A stretch of 64,000 bases of DNA, from NCBI GenBank assembly GCA_963575745.1, contig CAUYUJ010000001.1:2046001-2110000 (forward strand), given 5' to 3'. The translations under genes were made by a program, and so were the position numbers. The notes under the pieces were generated by a model. It had not been told where the DNA came from, made no database searches, and saw only the letters and a list, made by a program, of their open reading frames with translations. The stretch comes from Prorocentrum cordatum. Lineage: Eukaryota. This document shows, piece by piece, positions 1-53,580 of the stretch. Positions within the stretch are counted from its first letter, which is position 1; each line of letters starts with the position of its first letter.

Positions 1-32
1 AACCACAGCCTAAACCAATCACCGAAGCCGAA

Positions 33-1958
33 ATGCACATGCACTGGATTAAGATAACTATCTTCGGCATTCTATGGGTAATAATGGGATGTGCTGTGGG
101 ATACATGCGGCAGGGGATGGACGACACGCGTACTACCGGCCCTTCGTGGGACCCTGCCGGTACTACGCCTTTTCGCGAATACGTTCGCGAAGTACATGCA
201 TGGATAAACGTAACGAGCGGCAATATGACGCCACCTCAACAAGCTGCAGCACTACAACGAGGCCTTCAAGGTCTTGCTCGTCGTATCGCCATGCAGGTCC
301 CCTCCCAGATCATCAACTATGGTGTAACTGTCAACGGACAGCCAACGGATGCAGTTACTTATATACTGTACCTATTGAGCACCAAATTTGAAAATCTGGA
401 AGATGAGCGCCAGCTCAACTCTGGCACTGCCCTTATCGACTTTCGCGTCGAAAGGGGCGAGCGAATCGACTCAGTGTTAGCTCGATTCGAGATGGCCCGT
501 GACGAGGCTAACTCTGTTGGCTTTGTCATCCCCAACTTTCAGATCCTAACGCTGATCCTTTTCAGAGCGTTAGGCGTTGGCGCGTCACGAGCCCAACACC
601 TGCTGGAGCCCTTTAATCATCAGATGCCCAGAACACAAGCAGACTATGACAGGCTGCTGACCAGGATGAGGAACTACGGACATGTTGCCGAGCGCTCTCC
701 TGGCAACATTGCGGGTATCTTCACAGGGCACCACTCACATGCAGGTGTCTACGCCACGACTGCGGGGTCACCCGCTGGTCCTGGCGAGCCAAGTCCCTGG
801 GCTGACCCAGCCGATATGCCCAACGAGGCCACTGCCTTCTTAGGGCAGACCGGCCAGGCATCGGCAGAGGCAGCTGAGGCGAACGCCTGGTCGAACTACT
901 CGCCAGGCGCCGCCTACACTGCAAGCCCGCCCTCGGGCACAACCCTCTGGGGCCAAGCGGAGTCATCCGCTCAAGGGTCTCAGCCACCCTCACCGTTTGA
1001 ATCTGGCACTGACACAGATACCTCATCTGACGATGAGCACAATGGCATAGTCTCTGCTGGTAATGACTATCCAGCGGATGACACTCACCTTTCTGAACAA
1101 CAAAGAGCGGAAGCCGCTTTTATGGCTTATCGCAAATCAAAACGCCGTTGGAGGCGCTTTATGAAGAAACCAGTCAGAAAAGTGAGACGTGCAGTACGCC
1201 GACATTTCAAACGATATGGAAAGGGTCGTGGCAAAGGGGGTCGCAGACGCCGCATGCACGGTAGGGGTATTACTGCTTTCCTCACGTCCTTAACTGATAT
1301 AGTTTTTGAAGAAGTTCTTATCGGAGGCAAAGGTCGGGGTCGCAGGCGGACCTCTGATAAGGGAAAAGGGCGCAGGGGCAACCCTAGGGACGCTTCTGGC
1401 AATACTATGAAGTGTCATACATGCGGTAGCACAGAGCATTTGCGCGATCAATGCCCAAAAGGGAAAGGAAAGGGATCCGCACATTTGGCTCAAAACTCTT
1501 TTATGGATGACATAGACTACATTGACTACGAGTTTTACGTCAATCCAGAAGCGGCTCCCGCCGCGGGCTCCTCCACGTATTACGTGATGGCCCGCTACGC
1601 TGAAGTGACCGTAGCCCTGGAAGAGTACGCGGTGACCCTCTTCGACGAGTTCCACGGCTGGGACGAAGTCGACGAGGTCGCGTTCAATGCCTGGTTCGGT
1701 CTTCCAGCGGGGCCACCCGCCGACGACGAGATCTCCGATGCTGAGACCGTCCCGGCGACCGAGGAGGAGCTCGCCGCCGCGCTGGCACCGCAGGTGTTTG
1801 GCATGCCGTTGCTGCCAGATCTTCCGCGAGCTGGCTCGGAAGCGGGAGACGCTGATGACGAAATGCGGGGCCATCCCGCTTATTCTGACTCTGAAGAGCC
1901 GAAGAGGACCATAAGGACATGCTCCAAGAGCAGGTCGCAGAAGCAATCCAGCTCCTGA
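33..1958 (+). CDS. gag: Gag-like protein with basic region and CCHC zinc knuckle; probably continuous with the next ORF
   Basis: Gag-type N-terminal motif PSWDP..PFREYVREVHAW, an R/K/G-rich tract, and the knuckle CHTCGSTEHLRDQC (CX2CX4HX4C) at 1413-1454. The frame is open back to the window start, so the true start may lie upstream. Confidence 0.85.
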   Translation: MHMHWIKITIFGILWVIMGCAVGYMRQGMDDTRTTGPSWDPAGTTPFREYVREVHAWINVTSGNMTPPQQAAALQRGLQGLARRIAMQVPSQIINYGVTVNGQPTDAVTYILYLLSTKFENLEDERQLNSGTALIDFRVERGERIDSVLARFEMARDEANSVGFVIPNFQILTLILFRALGVGASRAQHLLEPFNHQMPRTQADYDRLLTRMRNYGHVAERSPGNIAGIFTGHHSHAGVYATTAGSPAGPGEPSPWADPADMPNEATAFLGQTGQASAEAAEANAWSNYSPGAAYTASPPSGTTLWGQAESSAQGSQPPSPFESGTDTDTSSDDEHNGIVSAGNDYPADDTHLSEQQRAEAAFMAYRKSKRRWRRFMKKPVRKVRRAVRRHFKRYGKGRGKGGRRRRMHGRGITAFLTSLTDIVFEEVLIGGKGRGRRRTSDKGKGRRGNPRDASGNTMKCHTCGSTEHLRDQCPKGKGKGSAHLAQNSFMDDIDYIDYEFYVNPEAAPAAGSSTYYVMARYAEVTVALEEYAVTLFDEFHGWDEVDEVAFNAWFGLPAGPPADDEISDAETVPATEEELAAALAPQVFGMPLLPDLPRAGSEAGDADDEMRGHPAYSDSEEPKRTIRTCSKSRSQKQSSS

Positions 1959-4900
1959 GTGCGCCAGCACATCAGCAGATAACCATGAACGACCTGCTGT
2001 CGCACCCAGGGGCCGCAAGGCTGCGTCCATACCTGGATTCGGACATGTCGGCACCTCAGATGCTGACAGCACTCCAGGCTCTAGCGGGGTCACCCGCCGA
2101 AGTGACGCCAGCCGCAGCAGCGGGGCCACCCGCTTGGTCTATGGATGTATTCATGCAGGGCTGCGACCAGATGGACCTCAACGACCTCACGATGGAGCAG
2201 CTAAACGACATCGGGTACTTCCGAAGCCCGTATCAGCACGTATTCATGGTCCAGGACAGCTCAGAGGACTCGGAGGACATGCGCCATGCCAAGAGGGACA
2301 GACGACCATCGCCTCCCCGAGACTCAGAGCATGAAGATGAAAGGCCCATGGAACGTGGCAGTGCGTCAGCGGGGCCAGCCCGCAGGAGGAGCCGTTCAGC
2401 TCCACGACGCCCTACACATGATGCATCGGGCTATCCGTACAGTACGGAGCACTCCGTAGGTGCATCCGCTCAGTACGTGCCGGAGTGGTACATCAATTGG
2501 TACCCCGGCTACTCGATGGACGTGATCCGCCACTGGTATTCTAAGGAGTACTGCACCAAAAGGGACGAATCTGGCATGATAATACGCACCAAGGGTGGCA
2601 AGACTAAAACGCCAGAGGCTTGGGACAAAAGGGCTAAGAAACAGGAGATCATCAACGATCGCAAGACATACAGGAAACAAGTATGTCAATGCGAGCCCTT
2701 CAAAAGTCACATGCGCAGCAATCCAATGGACCGCCCCTCCAGGAGCCCTCATCACGGTGAGACCCCGTGGAATTGGTCTCATGGAGGTGACGCTGGCAAC
2801 GTCCATGATCCTAACAAGGAGGTCCCTGGAGGAGGAAAGCGCATAACTGAAGCCGATGGCGTCCCTATGACCGAGGAGGTTGCCAACGCTGTCAGGGAAA
2901 ATTGGGAACAGCTTCCTAATGACCATCGCCTCAAGGAATGGAACCGCCGATTCCATAAAGAGGCGGGGTCACCCGCAGAATCCAGCGGAGAAGCGGGGTC
3001 ACCCGCAGACGCGGCGCCAGTCGCTGGGTCCGCGGACGAAGATTGGATAGCTGTTGCATCTGCTGCCGGATCCGCCGCCGGTACTGACCAAACCGAACTG
3101 ACTGAAGAATGGGCGGCGGAAGACGGCTCAGAGAATCCATTCCCTGATGGGTGCGCCTGCTGGCACTACAGCTCCTCGGCACAGAAGTGGTTTTGCACAA
3201 GGGTTATTCACCGCCACGAAAATGGCAAGTACAAGCTGGCCATAAAAGGCACTGCCGACATCGACCAGATGAGGCAGATCGTTCATGATCATGGCCAGCC
3301 AGAAGGCCCTCCTAAGGACCCTCCTGGTCCACAACCAGGCAAGGGCAGCAGACCACCTCCAAGACCTGAAGCCGACTCCTCGTCTTCACCGACTCCTGCG
3401 AAGAGGCACCCGTCCAAGAGCCCCGAAGGCACACGGGGGCGTGCGAAGGCCAGAGGGATCGCCAAGAAGGACGACCCTGAGCAGGGAGAGCCGACCGGCC
3501 CGTCCGTGACGGAGAGGAGGAAGGCTTTTGCTGGACCATCAACCCCGGTGCCACCGGCTGCCCAAGGCGATGTCAAGGACGAAGTTCGCGACCAGCCTAA
3601 GGCAGCCTTCCGAGGTGACTGGACTCCAACGCTGCATCAGCCGCGCCTTGCACCACGACCAGGTTCAGCACGAATGAAAGCACAGCCGAAGCCTGAAGCT
3701 GGGACGAGGTCGGCGCGGGCAGAAGCAGCCGCCAAAGCTAAGGAGGACAAGGGCTCTGCGGGGCCACCCGCTAAAGCGGCGCCAGCTGCAGCAGCGGGGG
3801 CACCCGCAGAAGGCACTCTCTCAAGAGAAGAACGCTTCAGAGCCCTCAAAGAGTTTGGCGACCGACAGAAACTAGCCGACGATGCAGTGGCTGACCAAGG
3901 TCACCCGCACCCTGGCGCGGAGTCATCCGCTGGAGCTGCCTCGTCAGCCGCAGGTTCTGCAGGGCCACCCGTTAAAGCGGCGCCAGCTGCATTAGCGGGG
4001 CCACTCGTTAAAGCGGCGCCAGCTGCATTAGCGGGGCCACCCGCACGCTGGCAGCCAGCGATGTCTGTTCTCAGGAACATCCCTCTGGGAGCCATTGAAT
4101 ATTGGCAAGGCATTGAAGGCAAAGGCCCGAAGCGCACCATAAACCCACGAGTCACTCGAGACGATGCAGATCGATGCGAGGTCATTAATTGTCCTGATCG
4201 CCGTAACTTCGAGTGCCGCAACGATTGGGAACGTGAACAACAAGCCGTGGGAAATATGTTGCGAGACAGGCCGCCATTGCGCGTCGCGCAGCACAGGGCA
4301 GAGCTCATGAAGGTCCTGGAGAAGTTTAATACAGATCCTACTCTGCCGCGCGACTGGCAAATGACCAAGGTGTCAATATGGTTCTCTACAGCCCTACCCC
4401 ATAGTCCGTATTGGAAAGATGGATTCAGCCGACATTTCGAAAAGATCAACACTTTCGATCCATACGATGGCTGGGTTGTTATTGACGATTTGTTGACAAA
4501 CTGGACTGAAAACGATCAGTGGAAAGGCTACCGTGACATGCATGATGCGCTGATCAAGGGCAACCCTCACTGTTCATACGTGTACTGGGTGTTGCTAAAC
4601 TGCTGCGAGATGATCGACGGTCATGGTATGCAGAAGGGCAGGCTCCAGATGAAGTGCGTCGAGGACAGCATGAAGCTACCTCCCAGATTCCGACCAACGG
4701 TACGCAGGCCACAATACTTCATCAGAGCCACGAACGGCCATAGCAGCCCAGGCATCCACTGCCCCGAGTCGCTCTATAAGCCGATCACAACATGGATGAA
4801 GGAACCAGACGACCCAGTATACTTCATCCACGGGACACAGTGGGAACATGTCAAGGGCATCCTTGATAATGGCCTTTCGTGCCTCGCACAGGACAACCCT

Positions 4901-7900
4901 AAGGGGAAGGGGGGGCGCCAGTTCGTACACGGCTGCCCCTACCTCCCGGGTGACCCGAGGATTCAATCGGGCATCCGTCCTGACTCAGAGGTGCTTATCT
5001 TCTGCAGCATCAGCAAGATGTTGTCCAGCGGCTTTTCCTTATGGAGGTCAGCGAATGACATCGTCATGACACGGGGCCACGACGGCCGCATACCGCCCGA
5101 TCATATCCTCCAGATTGTGAGCATTGCAAAATATCGGGTCGGTGAAGCCTGGAGCAATCCGCTGGCGTATGACAAATCGCGGAAGCGGGGCCAACCCGCA
5201 GACAGGATTCGCACCGATGATTACCTGCCACTTAAACTATGTGACAGAACTCTGGGTGTAATGGAAGATCACGCCATGTACCTAAAGGGCTGGTCTAAGA
5301 CGGACGGTCGCCCATTCAACTTGATCATGACCGAGCAAGATGTTGCTCCACGACCGTACGACACACAGACAGTCCTCATGATAAATGCCCAGGAAGACGA
5401 GGTCATGCCTGAGGCGGGGCCACCCGCAGGTGCGGGGACACCCGCGGTAGACACCTCGGATGGTTCATGGCAACAAGTGGTCACACCAGTAGCAACGGTA
5501 GCATCTCCTTGGAGGCCGGATCAGCAGGCATGGGTCCAGGCCCTCAACAGCTACCTGACACCAGCCGACGTTTCTGGACTGACCGATCAGCTATATCGTG
5601 CTGACCCGTGGGCAGTGCATACAGGTATCCAAGACGCACAGCAGAGGAACCTGCGCACTCCTGCGGGGCCACCAGGCGTCCTAGGACCACAGCCACAACG
5701 CCCTCCGCAGCAGGCTGGAGGTGCGAGGTTTGTCCCTATGGGCGGCTCAGATGGTGGCTCGCCGTTCCGGACTCCGCCGTCTGAAACGAGCGAGAACAGC
5801 TTGTGGCAAAGACTCCAGGCGATTCGCGGGAATCCGGCACTCGCAGCAGCACTCCAAGCAACCACTCCCTTTGGCACTCCGAGGGGTAGTGAAGGAGGAG
5901 TGGCTGCGGGGTCACCCGCCGAGCGAACGCCTGCGGAGCCACCCGCTCAAGCGGGGCCACCCGCTGACGGACAGCAAGGTTCAGACTACGAACGTCGGGC
6001 AGCCAACTTAAGAGCACAGGCTACTTTTCTGCAGCAACAAGCTGATAGAGTGCCCAGCCTGTTGCGGAACCGCAACATAGATGTTACGAATCATGGCGAC
6101 TTTCGACCTCTTTGGAGTTGGACTTCTGAAGATGCTCCAAATGCTGATCCCACGAATCCATATCGACAGGTGTTTATTCCAGGAATAGCATCACACCCGA
6201 TATATGGATGGGACAATCACGGTCCAGCAGAGGCGCAGGCCATGGACGCGCCGATGTACCCGGAGTACTACGCGCAGATGAATAACACTCCTATGATTGC
6301 GGGGCCACCTGCGAACGAATACACTCGGAACCTAGCTAATGAGATGTTTCGTTTGCAGTTTACACGAGCGGTCGATGCGCAGTCTATGCCGCACTACGCC
6401 TACATGCCCACGCCGACGGACCCCGAGACCATAGTTCAGCCAGCTGGTCTCGCGGTGCCAGCCGCTATGGGCAGCATGCCAGACTACATTCGCGACGTGC
6501 ACAACACGCAGCAAGCGATACTGGCATCCAGGCAGCAGGCTCGGGACAACACCAGGCTGCGCCAACAACGCGCGATCCAGAGAAGGATTGAGCGCGAGGC
6601 CCAAGCGGGGACACCCGCAGAAGCGGGGCCACCCGCTGAACGGTCAGACAGACGGCCACCACCGACGCCATATCGGGAGGGCGAAACCACTTTCGAGCGC
6701 CAAGCTCGGACTCGCCCTGACGTGCCTGCTCCAGTCATTTCAGACTACAACTTCACTCAGTGCCCAATCTGCATGGACAACTACGAGATGGGCACTACAG
6801 TGTGGAGACTGGCGTGCGGGCACTTCTTTCACGACATATGCTGGGACCGTGTTGCACAACAGCACGTCCGCAATCAGCGGCCAGGTGCGCCGAATGAGGC
6901 CCCCTGTGCCGTATGTCGGGGACCGGGCATAGTGATAGCACACTTCCCATATGCTGGACAGCGCGACGCTGAGTCGGACCAAGCGCGCCAGCAGGAAAGA
7001 TATGTTGCAGATGCCCGAGAAATGCGTCGGTTACGAGAAGCAGTGGAGGCACTGGAGGCTCGAGTCGCTCTATCAGCGGAGCCATCCGCACGTGCCCCAG
7101 CTGCGCAGGCATACCCCTGGCCAGCGCCAGAACAAGGCATTCAGATGCCGATCCTGTCCACGCTCCGAGCGCAGGAGCCCCCAGCTGCGGGGCCACCCGC
7201 TGAAGCGGCTCCCGCCGCCCAAGCGGGGCCACCCGCAAACGGACCTCCAAACCCAGGTTTCCTGAGGACCATGGAGGCCAACATCAGGCGGAGTGGCAGG
7301 AGCGGAGGCGGGATCCGAAGGCCAACTGGATCAACCAGGACCTCTCGAGTGGCAAGCCCGGTCAGCGCCAGAAGCCGGGCAAGCGCTGAGAGCGCAGAGG
7401 CAGCCCAGTTTCATACCACGTTCATGATTGACACAGAGGGGCTGACCTACGCGCGTGACGATACAGACACGCTGCCACCAGGAGGCGAATGGATGTCCAC
7501 GCTCTCTGCAAACTATTGGGTCCTCCAGCAGGAACCAATTACTGTGGAGGAGCGCCGCCAGTACGATCAGATGTGGTGCACCGAGCTGACCATGAGCCAA
7601 TGGGTTCTTGAACAGCGCCTGTTGAGGGGTACACTCGGATCACAGATCACGTACCACACCAACGACCACACTGGCGTACAGGTCGCTCTTGCAGCGCGCA
7701 ATGGGACATTCTTTCCTGATGAAGATGGTGTGCCCTGTATCTCGTTCATGCTGGACATTGGTTCTAATGTGAACATCATTGGATCCAACACGGCGCGGAC
7801 CTTCCAGGAGATAATGGCCAGGTACAACTACCGACCTGCCATCTGCACCCTGAGCAAGACCCTCTACATTAATGGTGTTGGGGAGGGCGCTGCGATATGT

Positions 7901-8815
7901 CGGAAGATGGGCAACTTCAAGATCGGGGTACAGTATGCCAACGAGGCGAGCCCCCGTATCGAGGAGTATGCCTCCAACATCGCAGAAGGTTCGGGTGCCA
8001 ATATCCCGGCCATCTGGGGCCTAGGAGCCATGGAGGCACGTGACACGATCATCGTGCTGAAGCCTGGCTACCAGAAGGTCATCTTCCCCAGCGGTGACTA
8101 CACCCTGAAGCTGGGAAGAGGCACCAAGGTCCTGAAGGCGAAAAAGACTCCCTCGGGCCATCTCGCGATTCCCTGCGGGCTGTATGAAGGGGCCAAGAGC
8201 CACACGGTCACGAACACCTTCACGATCCGCAGCAGTCGAGATGGCTACACCGAGACGGAGAATGAAGAAGACCCCGTCAGTGCGGGGCCACCCGCTGAAA
8301 CAACAGCGGGGCCACCCGCGACGGGACAGTCTGCGACCTTCACGACCGATACGTACATCGTCGAGCCGTACATCGACAAGCAGCTCCTGGAGGACACGAC
8401 CCGTTTGATCGTGAACAGGACGCTGAACAACTGGTGGGAGTGCCGACAGGGCCCCGAAGGGACTGGGCCACACATGAAGGCTGCCCTGAAGTCCAAGATT
8501 TTCTGGGCAGTCCAGGAGGCGGTGAGCAAATGGGCGCCTGAGGATCCAGCGGGGCCACCCGTGTCGCCGCCACCACCACCAAGCCACATGGGCGGAGGTT
8601 CGTCGGACTCTGCGGGGCCAACCCGCGTGGAGATCGTGGGTCACGCTACGGATCGGACGGAATACTTTGACATATCTGAAAACAATCCGCCGATTCTGTC
8701 TGCGAGCGTGGCCACACCAGCTGCGGGGTCACCCGCCGAGCGAACGCCTGCGGAGTCATCCGCTAACAGCATGCCTCCGAGCCAAGCGGCAACTTGGTCT
8801 CACGACCGCCGCTGA
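1895..8815 (+). CDS. Polyprotein block 2: low-complexity linkers, Tpt1/KptA-like domain, RING-H2 finger, aspartic protease
   Basis: 2298-aa ORF from ATG 1919; the frame is open from 1895. It contains the three motif sets listed separately and ends at TGA 8813-8815. Confidence 0.88.
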   Translation, partial: RAEEDHKDMLQEQVAEAIQLLSAPAHQQITMNDLLSHPGAARLRPYLDSDMSAPQMLTALQALAGSPAEVTPAAAAGPPAWSMDVFMQGCDQMDLNDLTMEQLNDIGYFRSPYQHVFMVQDSSEDSEDMRHAKRDRRPSPPRDSEHEDERPMERGSASAGPARRRSRSAPRRPTHDASGYPYSTEHSVGASAQYVPEWYINWYPGYSMDVIRHWYSKEYCTKRDESGMIIRTKGGKTKTPEAWDKRAKKQEIINDRKTYRKQVCQCEPFKSHMRSNPMDRPSRSPHHGETPWNWSHGGDAGNVHDPNKEVPGGGKRITEADGVPMTEEVANAVRENWEQLPNDHRLKEWNRRFHKEAGSPAESSGEAGSPADAAPVAGSADEDWIAVASAAGSAAGTDQTELTEEWAAEDGSENPFPDGCACWHYSSSAQKWFCTRVIHRHENGKYKLAIKGTADIDQMRQIVHDHGQPEGPPKDPPGPQPGKGSRPPPRPEADSSSSPTPAKRHPSKSPEGTRGRAKARGIAKKDDPEQGEPTGPSVTERRKAFAGPSTPVPPAAQGDVKDEVRDQPKAAFRGDWTPTLHQPRLAPRPGSARMKAQPKPEAGTRSARAEAAAKAKEDKGSAGPPAKAAPAAAAGAPAEGTLSREERFRALKEFGDRQKLADDAVADQGHPHPGAESSAGAASSAAGSAGPPVKAAPAALAGPLVKAAPAALAGPPARWQPAMSVLRNIPLGAIEYWQGIEGKGPKRTINPRVTRDDADRCEVINCPDRRNFECRNDWEREQQAVGNMLRDRPPLRVAQHRAELMKVLEKFNTDPTLPRDWQMTKVSIWFSTALPHSPYWKDGFSRHFEKINTFDPYDGWVVIDDLLTNWTENDQWKGYRDMHDALIKGNPHCSYVYWVLLNCCEMIDGHGMQKGRLQMKCVEDSMKLPPRFRPTVRRPQYFIRATNGHSSPGIHCPESLYKPITTWMKEPDDPVYFIHGTQWEHVKGILDNGLSCLAQDNPKGKGGRQFVHGCPYLPGDPRIQSGIRPDSEVLIFCSISKMLSSGFSLWRSANDIVMTRGHDGRIPPDHILQIVSIAKYRVGEAWSNPLAYDKSRKRGQPADRIRTDDYLPLKLCDRTLGVMEDHAMYLKGWSKTDGRPFNLIMTEQDVAPRPYDTQTVLMINAQEDEVMPEAGPPAGAGTPAVDTSDGSWQQVVTPVATVASPWRPDQQAWVQALNSYLTPADVSGLTDQLYRADPWAVHTGIQDAQQRNLRTPAGPPGVLGPQPQRPPQQAGGARFVPMGGSDGGSPFRTPPSETSENSLWQRLQAIRGNPALAAALQATTPFGTPRGSEGGVAAGSPAERTPAEPPAQAGPPADGQQGSDYERRAANLRAQATFLQQQADRVPSLLRNRNIDVTNHGDFRPLWSWTSEDAPNADPTNPYRQVFIPGIASHPIYGWDNHGPAEAQAMDAPMYPEYYAQMNNTPMIAGPPANEYTRNLANEMFRLQFTRAVDAQSMPHYAYMPTPTDPETIVQPAGLAVPAAMGSMPDYIRDVHNTQQAILASRQQARDNTRLRQQRAIQRRIEREAQAGTPAEAGPPAERSDRRPPPTPYREGETTFERQARTRPDVPAPVISDYNFTQCPICMDNYEMGTTVWRLACGHFFHDICWDRVAQQHVRNQRPGAPNEAPCAVCRGPGIVIAHFPYAGQRDAESDQARQQERYVADAREMRRLREAVEALEARVALSAEPSARAPAAQAYPWPAPEQGIQMPILSTLRAQEPPAAGPPAEAAPAAQAGPPANGPPNPGFLRTMEANIRRSGRSGGGIRRPTGSTRTSRVASPVSARSRASAESAEAAQFHTTFMIDTEGLTYARDDTDTLPPGGEWMSTLSANYWVLQQEPITVEERRQYDQMWCTELTMSQWVLEQRLLRGTLGSQITYHTNDHTGVQVALAARNGTFFPDEDGVPCISFMLDIGSNVNIIGSNTARTFQEIMARYNYRPAICTLSKTLYINGVGEGAAICRKMGNFKIGVQYANEASPRIEEYASNIAEGSGANIPAIWGLGAMEARDTIIVLKPGYQKVIFPSGDYTLKLGRGTKVLKAKKTPSGHLAIPCGLYEGAKSHTVTNTFTIRSSRDGYTETENEEDPVSAGPPAETTAGPPATGQSATFTTDTYIVEPYIDKQLLEDTTRLIVNRTLNNWWECRQGPEGTGPHMKAALKSKIFWAVQEAVSKWAPEDPAGPPVSPPPPPSHMGGGSSDSAGPTRVEIVGHATDRTEYFDISENNPPILSASVATPAAGSPAERTPAESSANSMPPSQAATWSHDRR
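4361..5125 (+). other. Tpt1/KptA-like RNA 2'-phosphotransferase domain (RNA lobe + NAD+/ART lobe)
   Basis: Ordered motifs match the family pattern: SIWFSTALPH (cf. S..LS..LRH), DGWVVIDDLL, KGRLQM (cf. KxRF), IRATNGHS (cf. IRAxQGHS), FIHGT, I...GL, RQFVH (cf. RxHVH), SGIR, VLIF, SANDIVMT (cf. SxNGVxLT), GRIPPDHI. Confidence 0.88.
6761..6916 (+). other. RING-H2 zinc finger (putative E3 ubiquitin ligase domain)
   Basis: CPIC-x14-C-G-H-FF-H-DI-C-W-x20-CAVCR gives the complete C3H2C3 ligand set and the conserved Trp. Confidence 0.9.
7736..8180 (+). other. Retropepsin-type aspartic protease
   Basis: ISFMLDIGSNVNIIG (variant of the D-T/S-G motif, Asp codon 7754-7756), flap-like INGVGEG, IPAIWGLGAM, and SGHLAIP. 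Confidence 0.75.
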
Positions 8816-8851
8816 CGGGGGCAGGCGGGCGCGCCGGCGGCGCTCGCTTGC
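8813..8851 (+). promoter_or_regulatory. Putative stop-codon readthrough signal (UGA-CGG plus 3' stem-loop)
   Basis: TGA 8813-8815 is the only stop between two long ORFs in the same frame. It is followed by CGG GG and a hairpin GCAGGCGGGCGC (8821-8832) / GCGCTCGCTTGC (8840-8851), 12 bp with 2 G-U pairs. Confidence 0.7.
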
Positions 8852-11800
8852 GATGAGAAGCCGAATGCCGGCCTCCTCGCTACATACGTTGGCCGCGCTG
8901 AGGCCCGAGAGGAAAAATATCATTCAAAATGTCTTGTCATCGAGGATATTCGCACAGCTTGCGCTGAACTCCGAACCCGTGGCTATATATGTGATCGGAT
9001 TACCCATAATGAGGTAATGACTTCAACTGGAACACAGTATTTGGGAAATTTGTTGGCAGGAGACTACAATATGTTGTGGGTGGCCACACCCTCTGATTGG
9101 TACGTTCGTACTCCAGGAAAGAGGGCGGGACCACACTATCAACGTATACAAAATCTCCTGATCAAAGCGCGTGCTCTGAGAATGCAGATTGTTATCCTGG
9201 GGACACCCGGGTATTTCTGGAAACAGGGTCCGATCAAAGATGTTACCGAAGATTTGAAGCTAAGCATTATACGAATGAGACTCTGTCATTTCGGTATCAA
9301 GTTTGACCGCTCCAGTAAATATCCCAGTGATTCTTATATACAAGTTGCTACATCTTGTCCCCATATACCGATAAACTTATGGAGATGTACGTGTGGCTCA
9401 CACAAAGAGCACGATTTGGATTGGTATGGCCAAGACCAGCAACGTGCCGAGTTCCGGCATAAAACCTTGGCTATCATCACTGCACGCTTCCTTGATCAAC
9501 TCAATAAAGCCAACGTGATTAGGAATGAGCGGAGTGCGGTACACCTCAGTGTGTGTACGCGCGTTGACAAAAAGGTAAGACACTACGTTCAATGTCCACA
9601 AAAGGGCCCTCAATGGGACCATGTTGTTCGTAGAGTCACGACCGACCTGGACACGAATAAGATCGTTCAAGATATCAAAATCCAGGATCAGCCGACTGGG
9701 TACAATTATGTAGCTCCATTACCTGATGGGGTTACAAACATCAGTACTCGGTTATACTGGGAGCCTCCGGCTCCAGTTCTTCACGGCGATGGTGAGTCGC
9801 GAAGGCCACGCCCAAAGCGTGTGACGATCGTCGATGACGATCGGTCTCCTCCCCCTTCGATTGAGCGTTGCCAAACGCGACCCACCAACTTTCCTGAAAT
9901 TCCGCCATTTCCTGACTTAACAGCGGATCCTTCCGCAGCGGATCCCTCCGCAGCGGATCTCTCCGCGGAAACTGCGCTGCCCACTGATGCCAGGATAAAA
10001 CAGAAAGAAAAGCAGAAAGCTGACAAAGAAGCCGGCATCAAACCGAAGAAAATCCCGAAGAAAGTGGAAGACGGTAACGACGACTGTGGAGAGGACCTCA
10101 AAGGGCTTGACTGCTCCACATATTTCAACGACGTTCCTCTTGATGACTCGGACTCGGACAGCGAATCAGAGGACATCTTCATGATGTTACCGGCGGGGCA
10201 ACCCGCTGACTCACATGCTGATGTCTTCTCGATGGTCCAGTCACTATGCTACGGCAGAAACAATCAAGTGGACATGCTTGAATTATGTGGGGGCAAGGGT
10301 GGTATATCCATATTAGCCTTCAAGAGAGGACTCTCGTCGGGCGGGAGCCTTGATAAGGTATCTATGGTTGACCTTGGGAACGCGGAAGTACAAAGGGCAG
10401 TCCTTCACTACCTCAAGACTTGCTTTGTCAAGATCACGATTCTGCAGCCAAGCTGCAGAACTACTGGACTTCCTTCCTACTTCAATGCACAGGTCAATCA
10501 TGATACGTGGCTTAAACACCACAAAGAGGACCTGCCTCATATCACGTTCTGTGGAACAGTCGCTCTATTACAAGACGACCTAAGACGTTTCTTTCTCAGG
10601 GAACAACCAATGGGCACGTGGGTGGATGAGATCCAGCCATGGAAGGAACTGGCACAACGCAAGGTCACTTGCCAAACGATTATTGATCAGTGCACGACTG
10701 GTCTCAAAGATTCGTTTGGACAATACATCCGCAAGCCAACACAGATGATGGCAAACAAAGAAGAGTTGTTGGCACCCTTCAGAGGCAAGCGTTGTCCAGG
10801 TAATCATGTGCACGCCAATGCTTGCAACAAAGAACTAGCAAGGGCGGCACAGTATACCTACAGAATGCAGTCACTGATCGTTGATGCGGTGCAAATCGCC
10901 AAAGATCTGTTTGCTTACGGTCGCGATCCATTCGCGAATCGCGAACGCAGTTATGCGTTCGTAACAAACAGTGCTGGCTACGACTTGGACGACCCAACAA
11001 TCCGGAGACACCCAAACGGAGAAATCTGGCGACCACCACCTGGCGGTCTTGGGTGTCCTGGCTGTGTAGACAACAACTACAAACAATCACCAAGACACAG
11101 CAGGGATCCGAAGATGTGTCGATGGTATGATGTTGAACCATACCATTGGGACTGTCCAAGCTGTAAGAAGGAATACCAGAAGAGCAATCCTCACCATACC
11201 AAGATATCTGGCCAATGTAGATTCGCTGAAAAATGGAAACTGCCAGATAACTTTGGTCAGCCGCGCCCAGCGGGGCAAGCCGCTCCTGCGGCGCCAGCCG
11301 CGGAAGCGGCTCCAGCCGCAGAAGCGGCGCCAGCCGCAAAAGCGGCGCCGGCCGCGAAAGCGCGCATACGCGCGCCTAGGCCGCCACGGCCCGGTGAGGG
11401 CGATCCAACCGCAGGCGCCAGCAGCCATGACATCACCAGGGCCGAGGGGGCTCATGGTAACACCTCTGGCGCTGGTAGCTCTGACGATCACCGCAGACTG
11501 CCACAAGTTGCAGCAAGGCGCGGACGCATGGAGGGAGGAGATCCTCCACCACCGCCGCAGCCTCAAGCAGAGCCGAGGCCAAGGCCAAGGCTCCCTGATT
11601 GGACTCGCTTCGACGTTCAGCTCAGCCTTCAAAACCTGCGCAGCTTTGACCCAGCTGTAGTGCAGCGAGAACTCCGCAAACTCCACTTGAGATGGTTTCA
11701 TGCCAAGGAGCCAAAAATGCGGATGATTCTAACTAAGGTTGGTCTGGGTGAAACCCGTTTGAGTCTGATCAAAGGCATTTGCGACTCGTGTAGAGAATGT

Positions 11801-12233
11801 CGAGCCTGGGACAAACCAGGCAACACGGTGATGCCTTCTGTGTCACTGCCAGGACGTTTCAACGAGGAAGTCGAATGTGATCTTTTCTTTTACAAACAGG
11901 AACATATTGTTTTTCACATCATCGACCGTTGTATTCGCTGGGCAGCTGGCACAGAGATTCCTGATAAGACTATGCATACTGTTCTCGATGCCTATCACAC
12001 AACTTGGATGCAACATGGCCCTGCTAAAATCTTATACTCCGATGGGGAAGGAGCACTGAATAACGATACAGCAAAGGCCATCCTTAAGGCTAAGGGAACA
12101 GAGCTTCGTATCCGAGCGCGTGGCCAACACGCCACGACTATCGAAGCTAGGAACGGCATCCTGCGACACCTCATACACGTGATGGGAGAAGAATTGAATA
12201 GATTAAATATTCCTCTGAATTTCACTCGTCTTT
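8816..12233 (+). CDS. pol: Pol block 1: two methyltransferase-like domains, tandem Zn modules, integrase; continues after a -1 break
   Basis: The frame of the supplied 9017-12610 ORF is open from 8816 (RGQAGAPAALACDEKPN...KCLVIEDIRTACAELRTRGYICDRITHNEVM). Integrase-like sequence switches to the -1 frame at ~12231-12233. Confidence 0.85.
8927..9430 (+). other. Degenerate C5-methyltransferase-like domain (copy 1)
   Basis: Motif order parallels the downstream domain: CLVIE, LWVATP, VILGTPGYFW, MRLCHFGIK, RCTCGSH. The glycine-rich SAM loop, the catalytic Cys and the motif VI Glu are not evident. Confidence 0.4.
10265..10890 (+). other. C5 cytosine DNA methyltransferase-like domain (copy 2)
   Basis: VDMLELCGGKGG (motif I-like), VDL, ILQPSC (motif IV-like, Cys retained), FLREQP (motif VI-like), IDQCTTGL..RKPT (motif VIII-like), CPGNHVH, AAQYT. 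Confidence 0.68.
11054..11218 (+). other. Two tandem CxxC-x10-H-x6-C putative zinc-binding modules
   Basis: CPGCVDNNYKQSPRHSRDPKMC and CPSCKKEYQKSNPHHTKISGQC have identical ligand spacing, and each is followed by Arg plus an aromatic residue. Confidence 0.65.
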
Positions 12234-12330
12234 ACATGAAGCCTTGTTTGCCAGCAACGCATTTACCTTCTACAATGAAGTTTCTCCGTATAATGCGCTG
12301 TATGGCAGACAACCAGCTATGCTTCCCGAT
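11681..12330 (+). other. Retroviral-type integrase (HHCC + DDE core)
   Basis: LHLRWFHA...CREC. Catalytic triad in ECDLF (Asp 11879), YSDGEG (Asp 12041) and IEARN (Glu 12143). It continues as SNAFTFYNEVSPYNALYGRQP in the -1 frame. Confidence 0.88.
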
Positions 12331-15300
12331 TTCCCTGTCTTGGATCATGATCAGTCCGCTGAATCATCAGATCACTCAAGGGAGGAGACAATCAGGAGGG
12401 TTAGTCTGGAGGCAATTACGCAGGCCACTGCGGTTGCCAAGACGAACAGGGCTCTCCGTACGAAGACTACTGCTACGGGTGAATTTCACTACAAAGAGGG
12501 AGATCTCGTGGACTATCATCGCCCGACCACCACGAAAGACGACTGGGGTGGATGGAGTGGTCCATACCCGGTCATCCGCAACGAACCTGACCGAGGCCAG
12601 GTCATCGTGAAGGTCGGTAGTCGCGAAGTGCGAGTACAGTATCCTGACACACGACATACGCTGTACATCGAAGCACTGATGGTCCGCGAGATAGGATCGG
12701 ACAATACGGCCCTTCGGACAGTATTGGCCTTTATTGCCGGTCTGCCAGCGGGGAAACCCGCCATGACTTTCGGATATCTACCAGCGAAACAGGGCCGGCT
12801 GCAGATGACTGCTGCGAGCCGACTTTCGCCTAAGGTGCACTTGGCTCTTCAGTACCTCATACGCAACTATTTTCGTATTGAAAACGTTGTTGCTGTACGA
12901 CTTGCCAAGAGCCTGACGAAGTTGCCTGCTGCCCCCTATGCAGACAGCTGTACACTAGTGCACTATGATAACGATGTGACCCCTGGCTTTCACTATTATG
13001 AAGCTGATGGCACTGCCTTGAACATCTACGACATCACAGGATCCACACACTCACGCATCATCCAGTGTCTTAAATCCAAGAAGCCGCCTGCTGGATTCGA
13101 CCGAGACCTCACTAAGTTTGAGGAACTCGCTGATGGTCCACCACCAAGCGAGTCACCTCCAGCAGCTGCTCCTGAGCAGCCTCCTGCGGAGAATGATGGT
13201 CGGCTCCCGACCATCATAGAGGAAACAGAAGAAGATCTGGATGCCTTTGTCTTAAAGTCGTGGTATGCTGAACTGATGGATGACAGAACACTCCTTGAAG
13301 CTGACACAGAAGAAGTCATGCATACAGTTCCGACATACATGACAGACACACAGTGTGTGTTAGTCTCTACGACCTGTGAAGATGTGCAAGGCCACTTGCC
13401 GGAGCGGGGTCACCCGCCAGGATACGACATGGACACTGCTTACTACGTTCCTTTGTGCTCCACGGATCCGGACAGCAAATATGATCTGGATTCCGATGAG
13501 CACGGGAAGTACATCGAGCTTTGCTTCACAGCAGACATGTCCAAAGTCGTCCTGTCCGAGCAGCAACACCGATTGTTGGATGACAGCAGCGTCACAACTA
13601 TGCGAGTATACGTTAGTGCTGCCTCCAAACGTGCCGCGGTCGTCAAGGAAGACGATCTACTCACGAAGGCCGACATTCAAGCGAATCCGGTCAAAGTTTC
13701 CAAAGCCCTTTACACAGAATTGAAGACTTGGCTTGACAACAAATGCTTCCAGATGACTGACTTGAGCAAAGCGTCGAACATCATGACTTCACGCTACGTA
13801 TACAAATGGAAGTTTGTCAAGAACGAAAAGGGCGAAATGGAAAGGACGATTAGGTTACGCTTGGTACTCCGTGGCTTCATGGACCTTGAAGCCTTTGATG
13901 TCGAAACCTTCTCTGGTACGGCAAGGAGGTCAAGCCAGAGACTGCTCGCAAGTTCTGCTGCATGCAACAAAGCTTGGATCATCGCTTCCCTGGACATCAA
14001 CATGGCTTTCTTGAAGGGACTGACCTATAGCGAGCTCGCCGCGGCAACGGGCGAGAAAGAGCGTGTGGTGTGCTTCACACTACCTCCTGGGTCAGCAGCT
14101 GTCCTTCGCACACTGCCAGGCTTTGAGTCATATGACGAATCAAAGCATTGTCTTCGGTGTCTGAAGCCGGGGACGGGCACGAAGGATGCTCCCAGGGCAT
14201 TCTCGTTGAAGCTCAGATCCATCACTAGGAGCTTTGGACTACAGCCTACTTCATACGACGAAGAGTTCGAGATGAGCTCAAACCTCTTGACAGCCAAACA
14301 CGTCGATGACATCAATATGACTGGGAAGGAAGATGCTATTGACAAGTATGTCAAGTGTGTTGAAGATACGTTTGGAAAGTGCAAACTGAACAAGCACACA
14401 TACACAAACTGTGCCGTTCGGTACAACAAGACCGATGATGGGAGCGTCACTCTTGATCAGGACGAATACATCAAACAGCTTCGTCCTATCACACATCCAG
14501 AACTCACAGGAGCTGATCCTGAGAGCAAAGCGACAAAGACGATTTCTGATATGTTCGTCAGTCTTCGTGGCGCTCTAGCCTATGCGTTGATCACGCAGGT
14601 ATGGCTGATGGTCTATGTTGTCTCACTACAACGTATCCAGGAACCGACAAACATCCAGGTACGACGACTAAACGCGGTTACCAGGAAACTGCAGGCAGGT
14701 CCGAAGAAGATCGTGTATCAAGCTATGACTCCAACAGGAGAAGTCGACCTGCATAGCGATTCTGGCTATCGTCGTCTCAACGGAGATGAAGACGACGAAG
14801 TCAAAGGCTATGGTATCCGCGGGGCTAACCTGCTGAGGCGTGGCCACACGCAAGCGGGGAAACCCGTCGTGCACCTGGTGGACGCATACTGCAAGTCTCA
14901 TCGACTGCAGGTGCGTTCGAGCTACTCTGCGGAAACACTGGCAGCAGCCCACAACTTGGAAGACTGCTACCGGACCATTGTAACGCTCCACGAGCTACAC
15001 TCGGGACCATTGACCCCCACACAGTTAAAGAACATATTGGAAATGGGTGGTCTATGTATCAAAGTCACTCTGACTATTGATGCCGAGTCTGTCTTCAAGT
15101 CTTTGTCTAGCAAAGATCTGAAGAAGCCCACAGAATGTACTCTGCTTGGGCACATTAGCTGGATCCGCCAGATGATGGAGCGCGGAATCGTTGAAAGCGT
15201 TCAATGGTGTGACACGCGGGATATGACTGCTGATGGTCATACCAAAGGTAGTATTGACCGCGCGTTGCTCCTACAAGTAATGGCCGGCCAGCAATCCTTC

Positions 15301-15426
15301 AAGCACGAGCTGAAGAGACATACTCCGTATAGGGCGGGCAGGTCGTCTCAGGACGGCCCTGCCTCCCGAGCTAGCGGGAAAACCCGCATGCAGGTGCGCT
15401 CTAGTAGCGAGGAAACTCGCCGGTAG
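12234..15426 (+). CDS. pol: Pol block 2: integrase C-terminus, copia-type reverse transcriptase and RNase H
   Basis: RT motifs SRYVYKWK, RLRLVLRGF, SLDINMAFLKG, GTKDAPRAF, KHVDDI (14296-14313) and LDQDEYI. RNase H motifs LHSDSGY, SSYSAETLAA, TIDAESV and DMTADGHTK. Confidence 0.93.
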
Positions 15427-15535
15427 CGAGGCTACTCGCGCGCCCTTGCCTTGTAGGCAGCCGCTGTTGCCTAGCACTGTTTTTCCGTGCAATGTAGAAG
15501 TGTGGTGCCTGCTCGTCTCCTCCCCCTCCGACTTT

Positions 15536-15801
15536 AAACGGAGAAGGTTAAAGGCGAGGTATATATCGAGCATGCACCGCTGCCGTGCCTGGCTCAAGCC
15601 GGGCCCGGCCTAATATGTGACTGTGCCTCACCGAGGCGCACGACGTGTATCTGAGATCGGAAAATACCTTTTCCATTGAAGATGCCCCTTCTATCCTTTA
15701 CTCCAGATCCCATGCTTCGTCTCGCTCTCTTGCTCATGCGATATGAGCCAAAGCCTGGGATAGGGGAACGCCTAAGGCGTAACACATACCTAAGCTTACC
15801 A
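15536..15801 (+). repeat. Candidate polypurine tract (15536-15559) and 3' LTR
   Basis: Purine-rich AAACGGAGAAGGTTAAAGGCGAGG downstream of pol, then ~240 nt of unique sequence ending ...CTTACCA just before host repeats resume. There is no 5' LTR in the window to confirm it, and no TG start directly after the tract. Confidence 0.3.
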
Positions 15802-16139
15802 GTGCGTTTTCGACTGGGAGCCTCGGGGGCCATCTTAGGGCCATCTTGGAGGAGATCGATGAAAGGATGGGGGCGCCTGAATTAGGCTCCCCCCAGGAGG
15901 CCTAGTAAAATCAGTGCTATTGGCCTTCTTGCCGAGGCCATCTTGGACGTTGCGACGACCTGCGGCTTGGCTTGGCCCGTCCAGGTCCAGGGGGAGGGGG
16001 TCGGGGGAGGGGTCAGGACGCCCTCCCCGCCCGCAAGCCGTCTTGCCCACTCCCGCGCGCCCTCCCAACACATAGATAGCACCCGAGCCGCAGCATGTTC
16101 AGCGGTCGTTTTTTGATGGGCAGCTGATGGGAACCAAGA

Positions 16140-16355
16140 CAGACCCGGTGTGCGCAACGCTGGGGCGAGGCGCGCCACGCGTGCTACGCGCCCCAGGTGC
16201 GCCAGGCACCCCTTTGGCCCAAGCGTGCCAGGCACGCCTGGTGCGCCAGATGCGCCCCGTGATCCACGTGCGCCATGTGTGCCGCATGCTCCAGGCGTGC
16301 CATGTGCGCCACGCTCGGGGTACGCGCAGAGTGTGCCAGATGCGCCTGCGCACAT
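16140..16355. repeat. Degenerate GC-rich minisatellite (GTGCGCCA/GGCAC/GATGC units)
   Basis: Recurrent GCGCCAG, GTGCCA and GTGCGCC at a short period. Confidence 0.6.
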
Positions 16356-41115: not shown

Positions 41116-41167
41116 GAGTGGAGGAGGAGGAGGAGGAGGGGGAGGACGATGAGCAGGAGGAGGAGAA

Positions 41168-53157: not shown

Positions 53158-53231
<74 letters not shown>

Positions 53232-53580
53232 GTCGTCGTCCCCCCTGCGACCCACCCCGCGACCAATCCGCGACCTTCCCCGCGGCCCACACCGCGACCC
53301 GCCCCGCGACCCACCCCGCGACCCACCCCGCGACCCACCAGCGACCCACCCCGCGACCCACCCCGTGACCCGCCCCGCGACCCACCCGCGACCCACCCCG
53401 CGACCCGCCCCGCGACCCATCCCGCGACCCACCCCGCGACCCGCGACCACCCCGTGACCCGCCCCGCGACCACCGCGAACCACCCCGCGACCCACCCCGC
53501 GACCCACCCCGCGACCCACCCCGCGCCCCACCCGCGACCCACCCGCGACCCACCCGCGACACACCCTGCGATCCACCCAC
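53019..53580. repeat. (GTT/GGT)n microsatellite followed by a 12-bp GCGACCCACCCC minisatellite
   Basis: Direct reading of the sequence. Confidence 0.92.

Follow-up and report, generated by a model that had tools for sequence, protein, structure and literature searches.

We show here that a very large copia-type retroelement of Prorocentrum cordatum carries dozens of copies of a 14-nucleotide (nt) hairpin along its coding sequence, and that these hairpins are constrained at the nucleotide level. The stretch analysed, hereafter the window, comprises 64,000 nt of contig CAUYUJ010000001.1 (assembly GCA_963575745.1, positions 2,046,001 to 2,110,000 of the forward strand), and most of the element occupies its plus strand from position 1 to ~15.6 kb. 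The dominant hairpin, GCGGGNNNNCCCGC (GCGGG-N4-CCCGC), occurs 24 times in the 64-kb window, always within 762-15387, and has no copy in the remaining 48.5 kb, which are low-complexity and satellite DNA; dinucleotide-preserving shuffles yield a mean of 0.30 copies and never more than 2. An initial annotation, made from the letters of the window, had described about 23 copies with a GNNA loop (N, any nucleotide) and had noticed none of the array in the other 48 kb. This description holds well, given that 23 of the 24 GCGGG copies have a GNNA loop (GCCA 11, GTCA 7, GACA 2, GGCA 1, GCAA 1 and GAAA 1, with AAAA in the remaining copy). Tentatively, and with slightly less than an even chance of being right in our estimate, we read the hairpins as multi-copy, lineage-specific stem-loops of the genomic RNA that lie in tolerant linkers and untranslated regions (UTRs) and through which the element's own Gag may recognise or package this RNA.

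Results

Reading frame and unit of the array

Phase 0, in which the hairpin encodes A-G-x-P-A, accounts for 22 of the 24 GCGGG copies. Of the other two, one (13404) is in phase 2, as RGHP, and one (15374) in phase 1; a further hairpin, at 15426, begins on the final base of the stop codon of open reading frame (ORF) 4. The initial annotation had reported mostly AGPPA or AGSPA, the RGHP frame at 13404 and the copy beyond the stop, all in agreement with these counts, and the compensatory variants that it listed, GCGGA/TCCGC (seven), GCGGC/GCCGC (six) and GCGAG/CTCGC (15407 and 15426), are present where it had put them. Near the 3' end, the tail of the window copy is shifted in frame, and the hairpins that now look out of frame there probably keep the ancestral one. 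Hairpin sites are found between recognisable domains and in variable loops (Table 1), and the flanks of the copies are unrelated, which leaves the 14-mer as the unit. Weak members are the copies over ADPSA (9923-9953) and most of those over AAPAA, which lie in tandem peptide repeats and have non-GNNA loops. A cmscan search of positions 1-16500 against Rfam (E <= 1) returned only a chance-level SgrS row, with 18.3 bits against a gathering score of 37.

Constraint on synonymous positions and covariation

The peptide A-G-x-P-A (GCN GGN NNN CCN GCN) in itself fixes four of the five base pairs through codon positions 1 and 2, and A-A-x-A-A and A-E/D-x-S-A likewise give four of five automatically. 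Pairing alone is therefore weak evidence, and the signal rests on the synonymous positions. At the 24 AGxPA sites of the element, position 3 is G in 23 (C in one), position 6 is G in 23 (T in one), position 9 is A in 23 (G in one) and position 12 is C in 22 (T and A once each), and position 15, the first synonymous site beyond the 14-mer, is free (T 8, A 7, C 5, G 4). Across the element, the codons concerned have a usage of only 0.28 (GCG), 0.23 (GGG) and 0.19 (CCC). Codon-preserving shuffling, the check that the initial annotation had set against its own proposal, did not reproduce the counts: over 1000 randomisations keeping both the protein and the codon usage, GCGGG hairpins averaged 1.27 with a maximum of 6 (24 observed), hairpins starting with GCGG averaged 2.58 with a maximum of 8 (37 observed), and all perfect hairpins of the 5-4-5 type averaged 27.9 with a maximum of 43 (79 observed).

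Covariation was assessed at 51 element sites picked solely by the outer GCG...CGC and not by the pairs under test. Both inner pairs were Watson-Crick at 43 of these 51 sites versus 7 of 46 in the other 48.5 kb. Pair 5-10 was formed in 45 of the 51, as G-C (28), A-T (8), C-G (7) or T-A (2); over 10000 permutations the count averaged 21.2 and peaked at 32, without once reaching 45. The compensatory covariation claimed in the initial annotation thus stands for these four pair types at unselected sites, although part of it is forced by the encoded peptides. There is no peptide rationale for the coupling of G-to-E with P-to-S (GCGGA...TCCGC), which is seen in four copies with the GTCA or GCCA loops of the family. 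Two copies of a 45-nt module illustrate the pathway, the unit at 5933 being GCGGA...CCCGC with an A.C mismatch and its counterpart at 8750 being GCGGA...TCCGC with the pair restored. The constraint acts at the nucleotide level, as had been proposed from the first inspection of the window, because synonymous positions are fixed, shuffles fall short of the observed counts, 45 of 51 sites pair, some copies are in other frames or beyond the stop codon, and relatives change stem, frame and peptide.

Strand specificity of the loops

A perfect stem folds on both strands but its loop is asymmetric, and the loop class therefore reveals the strand. Perfect hairpins of the window element have 40 sense GNNA loops versus 5 of the antisense equivalent TNNC; by finer class (Y, pyrimidine; R, purine), they comprise 36 GNYA, 1 reverse-complement GNYA, 4 GNRA and 4 reverse-complement GNRA. 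The same asymmetry is seen when sites are chosen by the loop only, that is by the core G-GNNA-C in the window or G-GNRA-C in the relatives, and the four outer pairs are then scored. In the window element, 30 of 118 sense sites were fully paired versus 0 of 46 antisense sites, and the rest of the window gave 1 of 208 and 1 of 238 (Fisher p 2e-5 and 9e-14). Among 51 non-redundant relatives (see below), full pairing was seen at 37 of 439 sites on the sense strand versus 2 of 288 on the antisense strand (Fisher p 8e-7), and the 371 perfect hairpins of all 55 related loci included 52 sense and 16 antisense GNRA loops, with background 4-mer shares of 3.5% and 2.9%. A single-stranded sense molecule is therefore favoured over a duplex palindrome. 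GNRA loops are described as stable hairpin caps in RNA and DNA, and UMAC loops (UAAC, UCAC) as forming GNRA-like motifs that are present in phage boxB RNAs (PMC12550061). Folded as lone 14-mers, the hairpins have predicted energies of -6.2 to -9.3 kcal/mol.

Relatives spell the hairpin in their own way

Relatives of ORF4 among metagenome proteins are 52-57% identical, with one at 85%, and a scan of metagenome contigs gave 55 related loci, of which 51 remained after removal of redundancy. The 14-mer of the window is not recurrent as a family in any of the 55. Several lineages carry a recurrent 5-bp hairpin of their own, which has another stem and a sense GNRA loop and is found in differing frames, over differing peptides and also in UTRs. 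In locus L012 (and the near-identical L011), TCACG-G[AG][AG]A-CGTGA occurs ten times, encoding SHGNVN, with four copies 3' of the pol match. L023 has four perfect copies of GCACG-GRRA-CGTGC besides imperfect ones, in phases 0, 1 and 2, and L022 has GCGCG-G[GT]AA-CGCGC twice, downstream of pol. In L008 and L010 the sites are GCANG-GAAA-CNNGC, mostly with one non-Watson-Crick pair. L017 repeats a module of ~34 nt around GCA[CT]G-GAAA-CGTGC three times with identical flanks, and L031, with 35% pol identity, has another module of ~30 nt five times around GGAGACCTCGACCGAGG (160, 1846, 4086, 10056 and 10893). The L017 copies (3697-3737, 5965-6005 and 7999-8039) are in frame as GQ(A/E)SHGNVHPSQ and ~2 kb apart; those of L031 are in differing frames, one of them directly after the pol match.

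L015 is the most instructive locus for comparison with the window, as it holds the 3' end of pol (84% identical to that of the window) followed by a homologue of gag and ORF2. All of its 14 AGxPA sites are GC[G/A] GGN NAN CCT GC, ten with G3.T12 and four with A3-T12, and four AAxAA sites with G.T stand besides them. The four perfect GCAGG...CCTGC copies (e.g. GCAGG-GCAA-CCTGC) contain no CpG, and the other ten AGxPA sites contain one each. L015 also has GCGAG-GNAA/ACAC-CTCGC four times, in phases 1 and 2, and single hairpins with the stems GCAAG, GCACG, GCATG, GCATC and GCGTG and the loops GCAA, GAAA, TAAC, CAAC or TCAC. The pol stop of L015 is at 694 and Gag homology begins at ~1396, and the interval, which would be expected to hold the long terminal repeat (LTR) and the leader, has five hairpins (1163-1400). 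At the other end of the element, hairpins at or after the end of pol are found in the window (15374-15439), L012, L022 and L023.

Codon shuffling was extended to the relatives with 300 randomisations, leaving out L031, L036 and L039. Sense GNRA hairpins numbered 7 versus 0.6 expected in L015, 6 versus 0.4 in L012 and 3 versus 0.13 in one ORF of L023, and none of the 300 shuffles reached the observed count in any of the three. The shuffles were not exceeded in L005, L008, L001, the other ORF of L023 and the three ORFs of L017. The hairpin feature is thus widespread in the family, and it is not universal.

Orthologous sites change in concert

Two hairpins in the linker between integrase and reverse transcriptase can be compared directly. 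The window has GCAAG-GCCA-CTTGC and GCGGG-GTCA-CCCGC, L002 has GCAAG-GGCA-CTTGC and GCGGG-GTAG-CCCGC, and L001 has GCAAG-TCAC-CTTGC and GCGAG-GAAA-CTCGC. All 20 stem columns are invariant or compensated (18 invariant plus one G-C to A-T pair), and the encoded peptide is not conserved; invariant columns make up 18 of 20 in the stems versus 15 of 45 elsewhere in the linker (p 3e-5). All 30 cells of the alignment pair, with one compensated pair, a result matched by 164 of 500 shuffles; an alignment of three rows has no statistical power in itself.

In the variable loop of the RNase H region, GCGTG-G[AC][AC]A-CACGC is common to the window, L001, L006 and L015, whereas L014 has C-G in place of T-A at pair 4-11. 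L011 and L012 have two TCACG...CGTGA hairpins there, in an insert, and many relatives have no hairpin in this loop. Several sites in ORF2, such as the one preceding 'SDGSW', align between the window and L015, and each element keeps its own spelling at them, NCA with CCC in the window and CAA with CCT in L015. The difference amounts to concerted evolution.

A possible hairpin with a five-base loop, GCGGG-GCTAA-CCTGC with one G.T pair, was also seen at 14820-14834, where the conserved peptide IRGANLL is encoded. L001, L006 and L015 have GCGGG-GCAAA-CCTGC in its place. This hairpin may simply be a consequence of the conserved peptide.

Unit number varies between copies of the element

Units in the window are arranged in tandem with periods of 15 or 18 nt. 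Larger composites of 45-63 nt are repeated far apart, as at 5903-5947 and 8720-8764 with 96% identity (family D4). Relative to L015 and other relatives, extra hairpin copies appear as insertions. Contigs of four public sequencing runs contain many diverged pieces of the element (in run X1, 10715 pieces of at least 85% likeness). One contig each of runs X2 and X3 has an extra 36-nt unit, in which 7222 is joined to 7187 with 14 letters fitting both sides. This gain is joined exactly through the 14-mer, and hairpin copies therefore recombine. A copy-and-paste component is present, as shown by the 36-nt gain and by the identical-flank modules of L017 and L031. Of ~900 variant places between the contigs of the runs and the element, 40 were considered, and none falls inside a hairpin, where we estimate that ~1.7 would be expected; these numbers are too small to serve as a test of conservation.

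Discussion

A proposed role of the hairpins as signals in the genomic RNA

We infer from the above that the folding strand is RNA rather than plus-strand DNA, that its reader is Gag and that its purpose is packaging. The 14-mers would then be sense-RNA stem-loops with a 5-bp stem and a G...A tetraloop (GNCA in the window; GNRA or UMAC in relatives), multiplied along a genomic RNA of ~15 kb wherever they are tolerated, namely in disordered interdomain linkers, in surface loops of integrase, reverse transcriptase and RNase H, and in the untranslated ends. The preference for phase 0 would arise because a hairpin in that phase reads as a harmless A-G-x-P-A. With one dominant stem spelling per lineage, the stem would act as a lineage barcode, and Gag, which has an arginine-rich segment and one CCHC-like knuckle, would recognise, condense and package its own very long RNA via the hairpins, much as has been described for the dispersed packaging signals of single-stranded RNA viruses. 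Copy-choice recombination between hairpins, while the RNA is reverse transcribed, may be one of the ways in which copies spread and remain uniform. Of the three mechanisms suggested in the initial annotation, putative Gag packaging signals fit best, in line with the strand-specific loops; hairpins in plus-strand single-stranded DNA, the second, may also be compatible with the data.

A bolder form of this idea, which we regard as rather unlikely though worth stating, is that the hairpins of each lineage constitute a self/non-self code in RNA. Gag, or pairing between hairpins, would admit to packaging the RNA of its own lineage and no RNA from competing relatives in the same cell, with uniformity and occasional re-spelling brought about by copy-choice recombination in reverse transcription and by compensated CpG transitions.

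Several observations weigh against hairpins as RNA signals for Gag. It is unusual for a protein to recognise a plain A-form helix by the sequence of its stem. The loops of the GCGGG copies in the window are mostly GNCA (21 of 24), and the canonical GNRA is found in only 2 of 24 (GCAA, GAAA). When folded with 60 nt of context on either side, only 18 of 41 stems have a mean pair probability above 0.5, because adjacent identical copies compete. The feature is not universal, in that L005 has neither enrichment nor a repeated 10-mer, and L008 lacks perfect sense GNRA hairpins, its motif-like sites all having at least one pair that is not Watson-Crick. The strong bias toward phase 0 means that some peptide-level constraint also acts. 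The identical flanks of the modules in L017 (~34 nt, three copies) and L031 (~30 nt, five copies) favour copy-and-paste over site-by-site selection, and several changes counted as compensatory (G3>A, C12>T) are transitions at CpG, which mutation pressure alone would favour.

The wobble pairs give an inconsistent picture. Within sense GNNA loops, G.T exceeds A.C in the window element (11 versus 6) and in close relatives (36 versus 11), but in the remaining loci A.C exceeds G.T (50 versus 23, or 31 versus 13 for GNRA only, with many recurrent A3.C12). As the lineages disagree, the ratio of G.T to A.C was dropped as a test of the folding strand. The recurrent A3.C12 is seen beside a covarying pair 4-11 (C-G, T-A or A-T) in L008 (1612, 3769, 5492, 7708, 7746), L009 (1510, 2719), L027 (361) and L016 (473), and could be a conserved A.C wobble or a half-finished CpG decay.

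Other explanations

The alternative that survives best, though we consider it unlikely, is that the hairpins are functionless for the element. Very stable mini-hairpins would stall the reverse transcriptase, the ensuing template switch between copies would duplicate modules that bear them and carry these to new places, and the copies would be kept where the polyprotein tolerates them. This would account for homogeneity within an element without any factor that reads the sequence, and it is in keeping with the 36-nt gain exactly between two 14-mers in the X2 and X3 contigs, with the 15- and 18-nt arrays and the 45-63 nt composites at distant places, with the identical-flank modules of L017 (three copies) and L031 (five copies) and with the extra copies being insertions relative to L015 and other relatives. 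It does not predict that orthologous stems are kept or compensated in 20 of 20 columns while the linker around them diverges (15 of 45), nor that a 5-bp stem with a sense GNRA loop is still found in lineages that share only 48-57% identity in pol. Spelling that changes in concert at aligned sites and clustering in the putative leader and in 3' untranslated positions, which is typical of cis signals, also speak for a function.

Pairing between RNAs is an explanation we hold to be quite improbable. A 5' arm would pair with the 3' arm of a different copy, located on that RNA itself or on another genomic RNA, and thereby bring about barcode-specific dimerisation or condensation. Arm exchange would require precisely what is seen of the stems, identity within an element and concerted change between lineages, and the predicted competition between neighbours means that alternative pairings are energetically available. 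However, the conserved G...A tetraloop and the strand specificity are left unexplained, and stem sub-families coexist in one element (GCGGA seven times, GCGGC six times, GCGAG twice, GCAAG, GCGTG).

The third mechanism of the initial annotation, palindromic CpG sites for binding or methylation in the integrated copy, read by the element's own DNA methyltransferase (DNMT)-like enzyme or by its zinc domains, to which the RING domain may be added, is disfavoured, and we give it very little probability. Most stems do contain at least two CpGs, and the model of the ORF3 domain most resembles, weakly, C5 DNA methyltransferases, with E-x-C-G-G and P-x-C present. Yet a palindrome in duplex DNA has no strand, so that its loops should be indifferent to strand, and the loops found here are strongly strand-specific; four perfect copies in L015 (GCAGG-GCAA-CCTGC and the like) have no CpG and its other ten AGxPA sites have one, and the ORF3 domain has no Pfam or PDB sequence match.

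Equally slight is the chance that A-G-x-P-A matters as a flexible linker or protease cleavage motif with the hairpin as a codon by-product: the AGxPA frame accounts for 22 of 24 copies, the peptide alone fixes four of five pairs, all copies lie between folded domains, and AGKPP/AGKTP is an old peptide at the 12748 site, but as the sole explanation it is largely refuted by codon-preserving shuffles that do not reproduce the counts, by fixed synonymous positions, by copies in other frames and past the stop codon, and by relatives that encode SHGNVN, HGNV, RGNT, STETC or ARERA from a similar hairpin. The remaining probability we assign to readings that we have not thought of.

Comparison with known systems

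Many short stem-loops with a common motif are dispersed over the RNA of the element. Multi-copy packaging stem-loops dispersed in this way are known in single-stranded RNA viruses and hepatitis B virus (HBV), with packaging-signal-mediated assembly described for MS2, STNV, parechovirus and HBV pregenomic RNA. Many short stem-loops with a shared loop motif lie there along a long RNA, including its coding regions, and the capsid protein of the same virus is proposed to attach to them (PMC6281560, PMC4751978, PMC7612645, PMC5431903). Those signals are degenerate in sequence; in contrast, the hairpins here are near-identical 14-mers with a lineage-specific stem and are hosted by an LTR retrotransposon. 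The psi hairpins of retroviruses and LTR elements, e.g. HIV-1 SL3 or the GACG hairpins of Moloney murine leukaemia virus, are bound by the zinc knuckle of the nucleocapsid protein. They are likewise small sense-RNA stem-loops with G-containing tetraloops, and the cluster of L015, which would lie between the LTR region and gag, and the CCHC-like knuckle of Gag may be further points of likeness. However, psi is a single leader-proximal region, whereas dozens of copies run here in frame through the coding sequence to the 3' end.

Phage boxB is a hairpin of ~15 nt with a 5-bp stem and a loop of GNRA fold, and is read by the arginine-rich N peptide. Its likeness to the present system is structural only (Gag has a long arginine-rich stretch beside the knuckle), as boxB occurs once or twice per operon, acts in antitermination and is non-coding. 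Rickettsia palindromic elements and yeast mitochondrial GC clusters are short, GC-rich and palindromic; they multiply and may be inserted in frame within genes. As with them, the presence of a copy differs here between homologous sites (relative to L015, in the inserts of L011/L012 and in the 36-nt gain of X2/X3), but those mini-elements measure 30-150 bp, are genome-wide and act at the DNA level, whereas the hairpins here measure 14-34 nt, have a strand-specific loop and are found only in one retroelement family; the flank of 48.5 kb contains 0 copies. By this comparison, none of the nearest known systems appears to combine near-identical in-frame copies, lineage-specific stems and a retrotransposon carrier, and we found no prior description of such arrays in the open-access literature on retrotransposon GNRA tetraloops and Gag, on copia, haptophyte and dinoflagellate LTR elements or on DNMT retrotransposons.

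If the hairpins are real cis signals, this would be the first case known to us of a retrotransposon recognition signal written as dozens of near-identical, in-frame coding hairpins with a lineage-specific spelling. It would provide a handle on how very long retroelement RNAs are selected and compacted and how cross-packaging among relatives is avoided, through a 14-nt motif for which nature supplies stem-swap variants. The dual coding would be a clean natural example of RNA structure in synonymous and linker codons, and the motifs could serve as a marker for classifying poorly described protist elements in metagenomes. If they are instead selfish by-products of template switching, they would exemplify a new mode of repeat expansion within a retroelement.

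The carrier element

The reverse transcriptase profile RVT_2 of Ty1/copia-type elements matches ORF4 (PF07727, E 2.4e-11, 44.2 bits, cut-off 31.6). The integrase profile rve has no match in the window at E <= 0.01; the junction of ORF3 and ORF4 aligns with N-terminal parts of relatives, and PF00665 is found only in the distant matches P0016 and P0017. The Gag-like ORF1 is 53% identical to an ORF of L015, and its zf-CCHC match is weak (E 0.0016, 18.9 bits, under the Pfam cut-off of 20.8). Domain searches did not identify a protease in ORF2, and a collection of viral contigs contained no relatives of Gag or pol. ORF2 also encodes a Tpt1/KptA RNA 2'-phosphotransferase domain (4658-5077, amino acids (aa) 914-1053, PF01885, E 9.4e-15), an unusual accessory enzyme for a retroelement when within its polyprotein, and a RING finger (6758-6919, aa 1614-1667, several Pfam RING families, best E 2.9e-7) that is kept in L015.

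The window starts ~30 nt 5' of the gag ATG, i.e. the 5' end of the element lies outside, and no long direct repeat of its 3' region was seen within the window. The copy is probably not intact, since ORF2 and ORF3 share one frame parted by a single stop codon (8813-8815), the frame shifts inside the putative integrase (~12244-12610) where relatives run through continuously, and the C-terminal tail (~15360-15426) is in another frame than in the close relatives P0002 and L015.

The initial annotation had spoken of the element's own DNMT. The domain in ORF3 is conserved in the relatives L005, L008, L017, L023, L031 and L039, with E-x-C-G-G and P-x-C as its invariant motifs and a Cys/His module after them. 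A Foldseek search with its structural model (pLDDT 62.6) gave nothing at E <= 0.001, and C5 DNA methyltransferases make up almost all of the weak matches at its head (E 1.9e-3 and worse, TM 0.13-0.23). Identity as a DNMT is therefore plausible and weakly supported. One study of retrotransposons with a DNMT reports that Copia elements of Symbiodinium carry no such domain (PMC5890265), and the carrier element too may therefore be undescribed.

Table 1. Open reading frames and hairpins of the element, in window coordinates
Feature	Position	Strand	Remarks
ORF1	33..1958	+	Gag-like; arginine-rich stretch, then one CCHC knuckle ~1410-1460
ORF2	1919..8815	+	2298 aa; 18 of 24 GCGGG hairpins inside; Tpt1/KptA domain and RING finger
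ORF3	9017..12610	+	N-terminal domain, DNMT-like domain and Cys/His module (~10175-11233), start of putative integrase
ORF4	12244..15426	+	Remainder of putative integrase, RVT_2 reverse transcriptase (~13738-14520), RNase H region
GCGGG-GTCA-CCCGC (AGSPA)	762..775	+	
GCGGA-GTCA-TCCGC (AESSA)	957..970	+	Variant compensated at pair 5-10
GCGGC-TCCC-GCCGC (AAPAA)	1551..1564	+	Weak member, non-GNNA loop
GCGGG-GCCA-CCCGC (AGPPA)	1707..1720	+	
Three-unit module, 18-nt period	2084..2133	+	Perfect 2084 and 2120 around a degenerate middle unit (family D1)
Hairpin group	2963..3024	+	Perfect 2963 and 2993; GCGGC-GCCA-GTCGC at 3011, one G.T pair
Module	3758..3807	+	Perfect 3758 and 3794; G.T unit 3776
GCGGA-GTCA-TCCGC (AESSA)	3917..3930	+	
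Array, 18-nt period	3959..4044	+	Decayed 3959 and 3995; G.T 3977 and 4013; perfect 4031
Neighbouring pair	5414..5445	+	Loops GCCA (5414) and GACA (5432); 5432 aligned with an L015 AGQPA site
Hairpin group	5906..5964	+	Perfect 5906 and 5951; GCGGA-GCCA-CCCGC (A.C mismatch) at 5933
GCGGG-GCCA-CCTGC (AGPPA)	6299..6312	+	G.T at pair 3-12
Neighbouring pair	6605..6636	+	Loops GACA (6605) and GCCA (6623)
GCGGA-GCCA-TCCGC (AEPSA)	7076..7089	+	Aligned at most 2 residues from an L015 AGQPA site
Three-unit module	7187..7236	+	Units 7187, 7205 and 7223
Pair	8282..8319	+	8282 and 8306, both with GCCA loops
GCGGG-GCCA-CCCGT	8549..8562	+	G.T at pair 1-14
Hairpin pair	8723..8763	+	Perfect 8723; GCGGA-GTCA-TCCGC at 8750, compensated counterpart of the mismatched 5933 unit
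Three tandem units, 15-nt period, GCGGA-TCNT/TCNC-TCCGC (ADPSA/ADLSA)	9923..9966	+	Weak members, non-GNNA loops
GCGGG-GCAA-CCCGC (AGQPA)	10193..10206	+	Directly upstream of the DNMT-like domain
Array, 18-nt period, GCGGC-NNNN-GCCGC (AAPAA)	11270..11355	+	First unit GCGGG-GCAA-GCCGC, G.G mismatch
GCGGG-GAAA-CCCGC (AGKPA)	12748..12761	+	Peptide site common to relatives (AGKTP/AGKPP)
Double hairpin, integrase-reverse transcriptase linker	13386..13417	+	GCAAG-GCCA-CTTGC, then GCGGG-GTCA-CCCGC (phase 2); orthologous in L002 and L001
RNase H variable loop (LRRG...VHL)	14838..14867	+	GCGTG-GCCA-CACGC, then GCGGG-GAAA-CCCGT
Cluster at and just 3' of the ORF4 stop	15374..15439	+	GCGGG-AAAA-CCCGC, GCGAG-GAAA-CTCGC, GCGAG-GCTA-CTCGC

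Flanking DNA

The DNA beyond the element contains arrays of an 83-nt satellite at 36650-37100, 40375-42000 and 63140-64000. Tandem repeats with a 21-nt unit and a CCCACCCCGCGA-like array with a 12-nt unit are present at 50890-51540 and 53230-53580, and long GAG/GAC/CAA trinucleotide tracts extend over 20-48 kb.

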